Assembly (NCBI RefSeq): GCF_003334335.1
Contig: NZ_QOWQ01000103.1
Strand: one strand, 5' to 3'
From: Escherichia coli
GTDB taxonomy: Bacteria > Pseudomonadota > Gammaproteobacteria > Enterobacterales > Enterobacteriaceae
Length of the DNA: 1,542 nucleotides
Part shown: piece after piece, positions 1 to 1,542 of the stretch
Layout: each line of letters begins with the position of its first letter
Numbering within the stretch: the stretch's first letter is position 1
Made by a program: the position numbers and the translations under genes
The notes under the pieces: model-generated
What the model was told of the DNA's origin: nothing
The model's database searches: none
Seen by the model: only the letters and a program-made list of their open reading frames with translations

Positions 1-26
1 GTAAGCGTACAGCCTGAACCGTCTGG
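1..26 (+). repeat. Putative left terminal inverted repeat (IRL) of the IS66-family element; inner boundary approximate
   Basis: Sequence gtaagcgtacagcctgaaccgtctgg starts with the GTAA(GCG) motif typical of IS66-family ends. The right end is not in the window, so the IR length and pairing cannot be verified. Confidence 0.5.
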
Positions 27-71: not shown

Positions 72-473
72 GTGGGAACCAAAGTGTCAGATATGCAGAA
101 AAATGTGACTCCCGGCAGGCGAAAAGGCTGCCCTAATTATCCTCCCGAATTTAAACAGCAGCTCGTTGCTGCCTCCTGTGAACCCGGGATATCCATCTCA
201 AAACTTGCTCTTGAAAATGGCATTAACGCCAATCTGTTGTTCAAATGGCGACAACAATGGCGCGAGGGAAAGCTGCTATTACCTTCTTCAGAGAGCCCCC
301 AGCTACTTCCTGTGACTCTCGATGCAGCTGCCGAACAGCCAGAATCGCTCGCAGAGGACCCGGAAACCCTCAGTATCAGCTGTGAGGTAACGTTCCGGCA
401 CGGGACGCTCCGCTTCAATGGCAATGTCAGCGAAAAGCTCCTGACTCTGCTGATACAGGAACTGAAGCGATGA
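72..473 (+). CDS. tnpA: IS66-family accessory protein TnpA (Orf1), small helix-turn-helix protein; start ambiguous (GTG at 72 or in-frame ATG at 93)
   Basis: 133-aa ORF from the track. The segment ...PEFKQQLVAASCEPGISISKLALENGINANLLFKWRQQWREG is a typical transposase-associated HTH signature. Stop TGA at 471-473 overlaps the next gene's ATG (ATGA). No strong Shine-Dalgarno sequence precedes either candidate start. Confidence 0.85.
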   Translation: MGTKVSDMQKNVTPGRRKGCPNYPPEFKQQLVAASCEPGISISKLALENGINANLLFKWRQQWREGKLLLPSSESPQLLPVTLDAAAEQPESLAEDPETLSISCEVTFRHGTLRFNGNVSEKLLTLLIQELKR

Positions 474-817
474 TCCCGTTACCTTCCGGGACCAAAATTT
501 GGCTGGTTGCCGGTATCACCGATATGAGAAATGGCTTCAACGGCCTGGCTGCGAAAGTACAAACGGCGCTGAAAGACGATCCCATGTCCGGCCATGTTTT
601 CATTTTCCGGGGCCGCAGCGGCAGTCAGGTTAAACTGCTGTGGTCCACCGGTGACGGACTGTGCCTCCTGACCAAACGGCTGGAGCGTGGGCGCTTCGCC
701 TGGCCGTCAGCCCGTGATGGCAAAGTGTTCCTTACGCAGGCGCAGCTGGCGATGCTGCTGGAAGGTATCGACTGGCGACAGCCCAAGCGGCTGCTGACCT
801 CCCTGACCATGCTGTAA
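470..817 (+). CDS. tnpB: IS66-family Orf2 protein (TnpB of IS66 type; unrelated to the IS200/IS605 TnpB nuclease)
   Basis: 115-aa ORF. The translation MIPLPSGTKIWLVAGITDMRNGFNGLAAKVQ...HVFIFRGRSGSQVKLLWSTGDGLCLLTKRLERGRFAWP matches the highly conserved IS66 Orf2 pattern. ATG at 470-472 overlaps the tnpA stop. Stop TAA at 815-817. Confidence 0.9.
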   Translation: MIPLPSGTKIWLVAGITDMRNGFNGLAAKVQTALKDDPMSGHVFIFRGRSGSQVKLLWSTGDGLCLLTKRLERGRFAWPSARDGKVFLTQAQLAMLLEGIDWRQPKRLLTSLTML

Positions 818-843: not shown

Positions 844-867
844 TAAGCCCGGTAAAATACGGGCTTA
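844..867 (+). promoter_or_regulatory. Stem-loop in the tnpB-tnpC intergenic region that includes the first base of the tnpC start codon; possible translational control element
   Basis: Read directly: taagcccg (844-851), loop gtaaaata (852-859), cgggctta (860-867). This is a perfect 8-bp stem. It is not followed by a T-tract, so it does not look like an intrinsic terminator. Confidence 0.4.
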
Positions 868-1542
868 TGAACGACATCTCTTCTGACGACATCTTCCTGC
901 TAAAACAGCGCCTGGCCGAACAGGAAGCGCTGATCCACGCCCTGCAGGAAAAGCTGAGCAACCGGGAGCGCGAAATAGACCATCTGCAGGCGCAGCTGGA
1001 TAAACTCCGCCGGATGAACTTCGGCAGTCGTTCCGAAAAAGTCTCCCGCCGTATCGCACAAATGGAAGCCGATCTGAACCGGCTTCAGAAAGAGAGCGAT
1101 ACGCTGACTGGTAGGGTGTATGACCCGGCAGTACAGCGTCCGTTGCGTCAGACCCGCACCCGTAAGCCGTTCCCTGAATCACTACCCCGTGACGAAAAGC
1201 GACTGTTGCCTGCGGCGCCGTGCTGCCCGAACTGCGGCGGTTCACTGAGCTATCTGGGCGAGGATACCGCCGAACAGCTGGAGTTGATGCGTAGCGCATT
1301 CCGGGTTATCCGGACGGTACGGGAAAAACATGCCTGTACTCAGTGCGATGCCATCGTGCAGGCACCTGCACCTTCGCGGCCCATCGAGCGGGGTATCGCC
1401 GGACCGGGGCTGCTGGCCCGCGTGCTGACCTCGAAGTATGCAGAGCACACCCCGCTGTATTGCCAGTCAGAAATATACGGCCGGCAAGGTGTGGAGCTGA
1501 GCCGTTCACTGCTGTCGGGCTGGGTGGATGCATGCTGCCGGC
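867..1542 (+). CDS. tnpC: IS66-family transposase TnpC (Orf3), N-terminal ~225 codons; 3'-partial, continues beyond the window
   Basis: ATG at 867-869 opens a frame with no stop to the window end; it is absent from the ORF track because it lacks a stop. My translation reads MNDISSDDIFLLKQRLAEQEALIHALQEKLSNREREIDHLQAQLDKLRRMNFGSRSEK...LPAAPCCPNCGG...HACTQCD...YAEHTPLYCQSEIYGRQGVELSRSLLSGWVDACC. This shows a leucine-rich coiled coil followed by a CxxC...CxxC zinc-finger-like motif, as expected for the IS66 TnpC N-terminus. The DDE catalytic domain would lie downstream of the window. Confidence 0.85.
   Translation, partial: MNDISSDDIFLLKQRLAEQEALIHALQEKLSNREREIDHLQAQLDKLRRMNFGSRSEKVSRRIAQMEADLNRLQKESDTLTGRVYDPAVQRPLRQTRTRKPFPESLPRDEKRLLPAAPCCPNCGGSLSYLGEDTAEQLELMRSAFRVIRTVREKHACTQCDAIVQAPAPSRPIERGIAGPGLLARVLTSKYAEHTPLYCQSEIYGRQGVELSRSLLSGWVDACCR

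Follow-up and report, generated by a model that had tools for sequence, protein, structure and literature searches.

Which part of a mobile element does the stretch of DNA considered here encode, and what might be the task of the cysteine pairs and the leucine-rich segment that stand out in its last open reading frame (ORF)? The stretch, in the following referred to as the window, comprises 1,542 nucleotides of contig NZ_QOWQ01000103.1 from Escherichia coli (assembly GCF_003334335.1) and forms the left part (1542 bp) of an insertion sequence (IS) of the ISEc8 type, which belongs to the IS66 family and is very common in E. coli. Over its full length it is 99.9% identical to IS66-family elements annotated as tnpA-tnpB-tnpC, and among 5426 complete E. 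coli genomes, 3050 contain a match to at least 80% of it, often in multiple copies. A preliminary description of the sequence had proposed that this last ORF encodes the transposase, with the DDE region lying beyond the window, and that its N-terminus combines a zinc-finger-like cysteine motif with an upstream coiled coil. We conclude with high confidence that the region in question represents the non-catalytic N-terminal part of the element's DDE transposase, TnpC.

The assignment of the ORF as transposase is borne out by curated annotation and by profile searches. In RefSeq, the ORF from the ATG at 867 is annotated as tnpC. Full-length scans were performed with a complete copy of 461 amino acids, the first 225 of which are identical to those encoded in the window. 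With this copy, the NCBIfam model NF033517 scored 353.8 bits (cutoff 180, E-value 1.1e-105), while the fragment of 225 amino acids reached 135.4 bits (2.7e-39), the lower score being due to truncation. In the full copy, Pfam places DDE_Tnp_IS66 (PF03050) at residues 175-400 (E-value 7e-77) and DDE_Tnp_IS66_C (PF13817) at residues 417-454 (1e-13). The catalytic domain thus begins at residue 175, downstream of the cysteine and helix modules, just as had been presumed. Searches with the IS66 N-terminal zinc-finger and leucine-zipper families, which had been suggested as a check, also returned significant matches, zf-IS66 at residues 119-161 (E-value 3e-13, 50.4 bits, model positions 3-46 of 46) and LZ_Tnp_IS66 at residues 39-110 (E-value 4e-14). 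The zf-IS66 match coincides exactly with the interval initially delineated on the basis of the cysteines.

All five cysteine codons that had been read from the DNA are located exactly as claimed in the tnpC frame (TGC at 1221, 1224 and 1233, TGT at 1335 and TGC at 1344) and specify C119, C120, C123, C157 and C160 in the contexts AAPCCPNCGG and KHACTQCD, with 34 residues from C123 to C157. A pattern of the type CxxC-x(15-60)-CxxC occurred in 555 of 100,000 shuffles of the 225-residue fragment (0.56%), and composition alone is therefore an unlikely explanation. Conservation is the stronger argument for the motif being real. The fragment retrieves 12,107 representative proteins at E ≤ 0.001, and conservation was evaluated for 77 homologues that span residues ≤30 to ≥200 at 36-88% identity. 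In this set, C123 and C157 are invariant, and C120 and C160 are retained in 98% and 96% of the sequences, respectively. A cysteine corresponding to C119 is present in just 21%, and we regard this residue as a bystander for this reason. The motif of five cysteines originally envisaged is thus reduced to four, and judged from the alignment the conserved motif reads C120-x2-C123...x33...C157-x2-C160.

The leucine-rich peptide that had been singled out (LLKQRLAEQEALIHALQEKLSNREREIDHLQAQLDKLRRM) corresponds to TnpC residues 11-50 (nucleotides 897-1016), and the heptad-like periodicity ascribed to positions 890-1020 or thereabouts is non-random and family-wide. Over residues 6-47, i.e. six heptads, ten of the twelve a and d positions are occupied by leucine, isoleucine, valine or methionine, a value that no more than 3-5 of 2000 shuffles attained. 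The six a positions are taken exclusively by isoleucine and leucine (I9, L16, I23, L30, I37, L44), and the d positions include four leucines (L12, L26, L40, L47) next to Q19 and R33. Neither proline nor glycine occurs in residues 9-50, and the segment has the general attributes of a coiled coil, that is at least four unbroken heptads with hydrophobic a and d positions in a helical stretch free of these two residues. Among the 77 homologues, the a and d positions are hydrophobic in 46-100% of the sequences, except for d19 and d33, which are polar throughout the family. Examples of hydrophobic columns are L44 (100%), L40 (99%), I37 (96%), L30 and L12 (90% each). Strong purifying selection thus acts on both the set of four cysteines and the heptad core. 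Of the helical segment that was originally outlined, LZ_Tnp_IS66 overlaps with the last 12 residues alone, and the heptads at residues 6-38 fall outside any Pfam family, though their a/d core is conserved in homologues. Within the LZ_Tnp_IS66 match resides a further signature, FGxxSE, whose E57 occurs without exception and whose F52, G53 and S56 reach a conservation of 94% or more.

Structure prediction with AlphaFold2 for the TnpC fragment (single chain, alignment of 76 sequences) yielded a mean pLDDT of 91.2 and a pTM of 0.60. The model features a helix of 45 residues (6-50, block pLDDT 89-95), a second helix (57-81) that exhibits its own hydrophobic stripe in 4-3-4-3 spacing (residues 59, 63, 66, 70 and 73), a less confident linker, strands at 108-113, 126-141, 144-157 and 163-165 and three helices at 180-192, 197-206 and 213-224. 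Both CxxC knuckles are positioned at the base of the long two-stranded hairpin, which is the topology of a zinc ribbon, and the short strand 108-113 joins the sheet of the ribbon. When residues 98-176 were modelled by themselves, the same strands were obtained with a pLDDT of 88. The linker that precedes the ribbon carries the motif R99-x-P-[LF]-P-x-x-L-P-R108, with a conservation of 98% each for R99, P103 and L106 and of 96% for R108. According to the model, the order of modules is therefore the heptad helix, the FGxxSE turn, the second helix, the proline-rich linker and the four-cysteine ribbon, to which the DDE domain is attached without a flexible linker. The coordinates of these and all other features are compiled in Table 1.

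Table 1. Features of the window, listed by position; residue numbers refer to TnpC.
Feature	Position	Strand	Basis or remark
Left terminal inverted repeat (IRL), GTAAGCGTACAGC	1..13	+	window base 1 is element base 1
tnpA, IS66-family accessory protein with IS3/IS2 OrfA-like helix-turn-helix (HTH) signature	93..473	+	RefSeq WP_001171523.1; NCBIfam NF047595
tnpB, IS66-family accessory protein	470..817	+	NCBIfam NF033819 IS66_TnpB, 120 bits (cutoff 50); RefSeq WP_000612591.1
Perfect 9-bp stem-loop, AUAAGCCCG / CGGGCUUAU, 8-nt loop	843..868	+	RNA fold of 815-885
tnpC, IS66-family (ISEc8-type) transposase, codons 1-225, truncated at the window end	867..1542	+	NF033517; RefSeq WP_000998019.1 starts at the same ATG
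Heptad-repeat helix, residues 6-50	882..1016	+	heptad score, AlphaFold2, conservation
LZ_Tnp_IS66 (PF13007) match, residues 39-110	981..1196	+	Pfam, E-value 4.1e-14, 53.5 bits, model positions 1-70 of 71
Near-invariant F52-G53-x-x-S56-E57 motif	1020-1037	+	within LZ_Tnp_IS66 match
Second amphipathic helix, residues 57-81	1035-1109	+	AlphaFold2
Basic proline-rich linker, residues 83-118, net charge +5	1113..1220	+	charge count, conservation
zf-IS66 (PF13005), Cys4 zinc-ribbon-like module, residues 119-161	1221..1349	+	Pfam, AlphaFold2
C119, extra non-conserved cysteine	1221-1223	+	
Knuckle 1, C120-P-N-C123	1224-1235	+	
Long beta-hairpin, residues 126-141/144-157	1242-1337	+	AlphaFold2
Knuckle 2, C157-T-Q-C160	1335-1346	+	
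Start of DDE_Tnp_IS66 (PF03050), residues 175-225; helices 180-192, 197-206, 213-224	1389..1542	+	Pfam, AlphaFold2
C199 codon TGC at a family arginine site (PLYRQ motif)	1461..1463	+	homologue alignment

How could these modules work together? The four conserved cysteines would likely bind a single Zn2+ ion that stabilises or rigidifies the hairpin. We further consider it rather probable that the heptad helices mediate self-association of TnpC and thereby bring the two IS ends into one synaptic complex, be it by forming a parallel zipper or by pairing of helical hairpins; self-association is a prerequisite for a DDE transposase to hold two ends in synapsis. Much more tentatively, the zinc ribbon, jointly with helices 180-224 and the basic linker, may help to position TnpC on DNA at the inverted repeats. 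Recognition of DNA by the ribbon is the least secure element of this proposal, given the charge and the strand pairing of the ribbon, its inclusion in the core profile in continuity with the DDE domain and the HTH signature of TnpA, all of which are detailed in the following.

A number of points weigh against a DNA-reading ribbon. The module at residues 119-161 is not basic, having five lysines and arginines versus six aspartates and glutamates and thus a net charge of -1. Its conserved acidic strand (G131-E-D-x-x-E136-x-L138, with E132, D133 and E136) pairs in the model with an equally conserved basic strand (F145-x-V-x-R149-x-x-R152-x-K154) across the hairpin, and the conserved charges of the pairs E136/R149 and D133/R152 would face each other, which looks like a structural rather than a DNA-contacting arrangement. 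TnpA, which matches models for the IS2 repressor and for OrfA-type proteins of IS3, could supply end recognition with its putative IS3/IS2-type HTH. The experimental record is likewise silent: A sequence search of the PDB with full TnpC gave no match at E ≤ 1, and the literature searched contained no functional work on the zinc finger or the leucine zipper of IS66 TnpC. It is accordingly quite possible that the ribbon is a structural or protein-docking element that buttresses the catalytic domain or binds TnpA or TnpB, and that the ends are recognised by the HTH of TnpA and/or by helices 180-224. Such a function would agree with the observation that module and DDE domain follow each other without interruption, both being modelled together at a pLDDT of 96-98, and with the NF033517 profile, which starts at residue 94 so that the curated transposase core includes the zinc module. 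The adjoining linker, on the other hand, is strongly basic (+5) and does not sit easily with a purely structural role. The three helices at residues 180-224 (window positions 1404-1538), which are short and predicted with confidence, comprise a conserved G-V-x-L-S-R-S-x-L-x-x-W-V stretch. They were not matched by any HTH family in Pfam and could, to go by the model, form an unannotated HTH-like DNA-binding unit that rivals the zinc ribbon for end recognition.

A comparable ambiguity concerns the N-terminal helices. Helices 6-50 and 57-81 may form an intramolecular antiparallel hairpin instead of a parallel zipper resembling that of bZIP proteins, and oligomerisation would then have to occur via bundling of hairpins or via other surfaces. 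We regard this arrangement as possible, if somewhat doubtful. It may be indicated by the types of structural matches, which suggest that the two helices fold back on each other in the monomer model, and it is in line with their separation by the six-residue FGxxSE turn and with the hydrophobic stripe of the second helix. A zipper between molecules, however, is beyond the reach of a single-chain prediction, which tends to accommodate hydrophobic stripes within one and the same molecule, and the pTM is just 0.60. In addition, the first helix is much longer than the second (45 versus 25 residues), leaving about three heptads unpaired. That cysteine spacing and leucine periodicity are nothing but chance features of a GC-rich ORF finally has a negligible probability. 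CxxC pairs are indeed short and about 0.6% of the fragment shuffles give the pattern, but the four cysteines are 96-100% conserved in sequences with as little as 36% identity, and to this are added the significant Pfam matches, the conserved heptad core and the confident structure prediction. The conservation data thus refute a chance origin of the pattern. The opposite strand offers no alternative either, as its ORFs covering the region (868-1299, 1245-1448 and 1309-1533) lack matches in NCBIfam and no Rfam family reached threshold. An Rfam scan of the window produced only a sub-threshold match to isrJ, located elsewhere than the cysteine and helix region. When the other strand was inspected, promoter-like sites were absent and a single terminator-like site was noted, which does not exceed the number expected by chance.

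By homology, TnpC is a transposase, but in this lineage it may be inactive. In the 99.9%-identical copies, tnpC encodes 461 amino acids, and the DDE_Tnp_IS66 match ends at model position 222 of 284. A comparison with the 512-residue TnpC of ISEc8 revealed a clean gap of 51 amino acids, with SRHSELAKAF...DNNIAENALR...GRKNF missing. At the DNA level, this corresponds to an in-frame deletion of 153 bp downstream of the window between 5-bp direct repeats (CCTGT); the junction was located at positions 4567-4569 of the loci containing the two RefSeq copies compared here (L001 and L002), corresponding to tnpC codon 401, by comparison with positions 2601-2823 of a third locus (L003). DNNIAEN is present in all full-length relatives, and judged from motif conservation, the third catalytic acid of the DDE triad is probably located in the DNNIAEN...GRKN segment. 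Beyond the window, the 99.9%-identical copies thus do not possess a complete DDE domain with the presumed third acidic residue.

The window itself contains a trace of this event. Residue 199, a cysteine here, is arginine in 74 of the 77 homologues (96%), where it is part of an H-x-P-L-Y-R-Q motif, and also in full-length ISEc8 TnpC. Among the 120 closest protein clusters, C199 was encountered only together with the 51-residue deletion, and none of the 86 clusters that combine R199 with DNNxAEN carries it. Since C199 co-occurs only with the deletion, the window most likely stems from a deleted, possibly non-autonomous lineage. The form of 2289 bp to which it would belong is found in thousands of genomes with up to about 13 copies per genome, in BLAST counts of the junction that mix deleted and full-length copies as flanks are joined across the 153-bp insert. 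This form may be non-autonomous or regulatory. The shortened TnpC still has its coiled coil and zinc ribbon intact, along with the greater part of the DDE fold. It might serve as a dominant-negative or regulatory partner that co-assembles with full-length ISEc8 TnpC or occupies IS ends via its N-terminal modules, or the 2289-bp element could be non-autonomous and mobilised in trans. We consider such scenarios unlikely; if true, mobilisation in trans would explain the many copies per genome.

The ends and the gene layout are those of an IS66-family element, the closest named relative being ISEc8. The family is typified in ISfinder descriptions by ends starting with GTAAGCG and by an 8-bp target duplication. 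In the copy from an O26 genome (L002), the element is inserted inside yehR and has a length of 2289 bp. Its right end (...GCTGTACGCTTAC) is a perfect inverted match to IRL over 13 bp (23 of 40 positions over 40 bp) and terminates with ...CGCTTAC, so that the inverted repeats start with GTAAGCG. The element is bordered on both sides by the 8-bp direct repeat GAACGGCA (locus positions 2493-2500 and 4790-4797). The sole mismatch between the window and the two RefSeq copies is an A instead of T at position 160, which in TnpA changes a CTG codon (Leu) to CAG (Gln) in the context EFKQ[Q/L]LVAAS. The gene order tnpA-tnpB-tnpC with overlapping tnpA and tnpB is that of the family (ORFs 93-473, 470-817 and 867 onward). 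At 470-473, the tnpA stop codon and the tnpB start codon overlap in the sequence ATGA, which suggests translational coupling of the two accessory genes. TnpA was assigned with 97.4 bits to NF047595 (cutoff 74), and weaker matches were obtained to models for the IS2 repressor TnpA and for N-termini of IS3 transposases.

A stem-loop is situated directly before tnpC, with the A and U of the initiation codon base-paired within its 3' arm. Folding of region 815-885 resulted in -20.1 kcal/mol (z = -3.46), and 2 of 200 shuffled sequences were as good. No obvious Shine-Dalgarno sequence is visible ahead of tnpC. Based on the predicted fold, the structure may occlude the start site or restrain initiation of tnpC translation.

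How, then, does TnpC from the window relate to systems already described? Cysteine pairs and leucine-rich helix have been confirmed here, but they are already known, being catalogued as PF13005 and PF13007, and the value of the present analysis lies in the correct annotation of an insertion sequence that ranks among the most abundant in E. coli and in little beyond that. Some interest resides in how coiled coil, zinc ribbon, TnpA and TnpB contribute to recognising and synapsing the ends, a question for which the deleted lineage could provide a natural handle. In the PDB and the literature searched, there is neither a solved structure nor a biochemically defined DNA-binding domain for any IS66-family transposase. 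Foldseek with the 225-residue model against the PDB likewise found nothing significant; the top entry, the IS256-family transposase of ISCth4 (E-value 0.22), is a mere lead. An LZ domain has already been drawn in IS66 TnpC by Gomez et al. (2014; PMC3971601), who also reported peptides binding the beta-clamp up- or downstream of this domain and noted that LZ is a separate ORF in some Bacilli.

Among the closest known systems, zf-IS66 (PF13005, zinc-finger binding domain of transposase IS66) is matched by TnpC at 44 of 46 model positions, with the same CxxC...CxxC ligand pattern and the same placement directly upstream of DDE_Tnp_IS66, and the family also appears in the precomputed Pfam annotation of the protein cluster to which TnpC itself belongs. 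There is no material difference to this family, and the extra, non-conserved C119 beside the first ligand is the sole departure from the known pattern. Four-cysteine zinc ribbons such as the N-terminal domain of NrdR and domain III of TFIIS also rank among the closest known systems for the TnpC module. With LZ_Tnp_IS66 (PF13007), the leucine-zipper/homeodomain-like region of IS66 TnpC, the match includes the FGxxSE motif; it differs in that the model begins only at TnpC residue 39 and comprises no more than two heptads of the long helix, at its end, followed by the second helix and the basic linker. ISEc8, finally, shares the tnpA-tnpB-tnpC layout and the inverted repeats with the element studied here, its TnpC of 512 amino acids is 98% identical over the aligned positions, and the DNA on either side of the deletion point shows 100% identity. 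It differs from the lineage of the window, which encodes 461 amino acids, lacks the segment of 51 residues and carries the R199C exchange.
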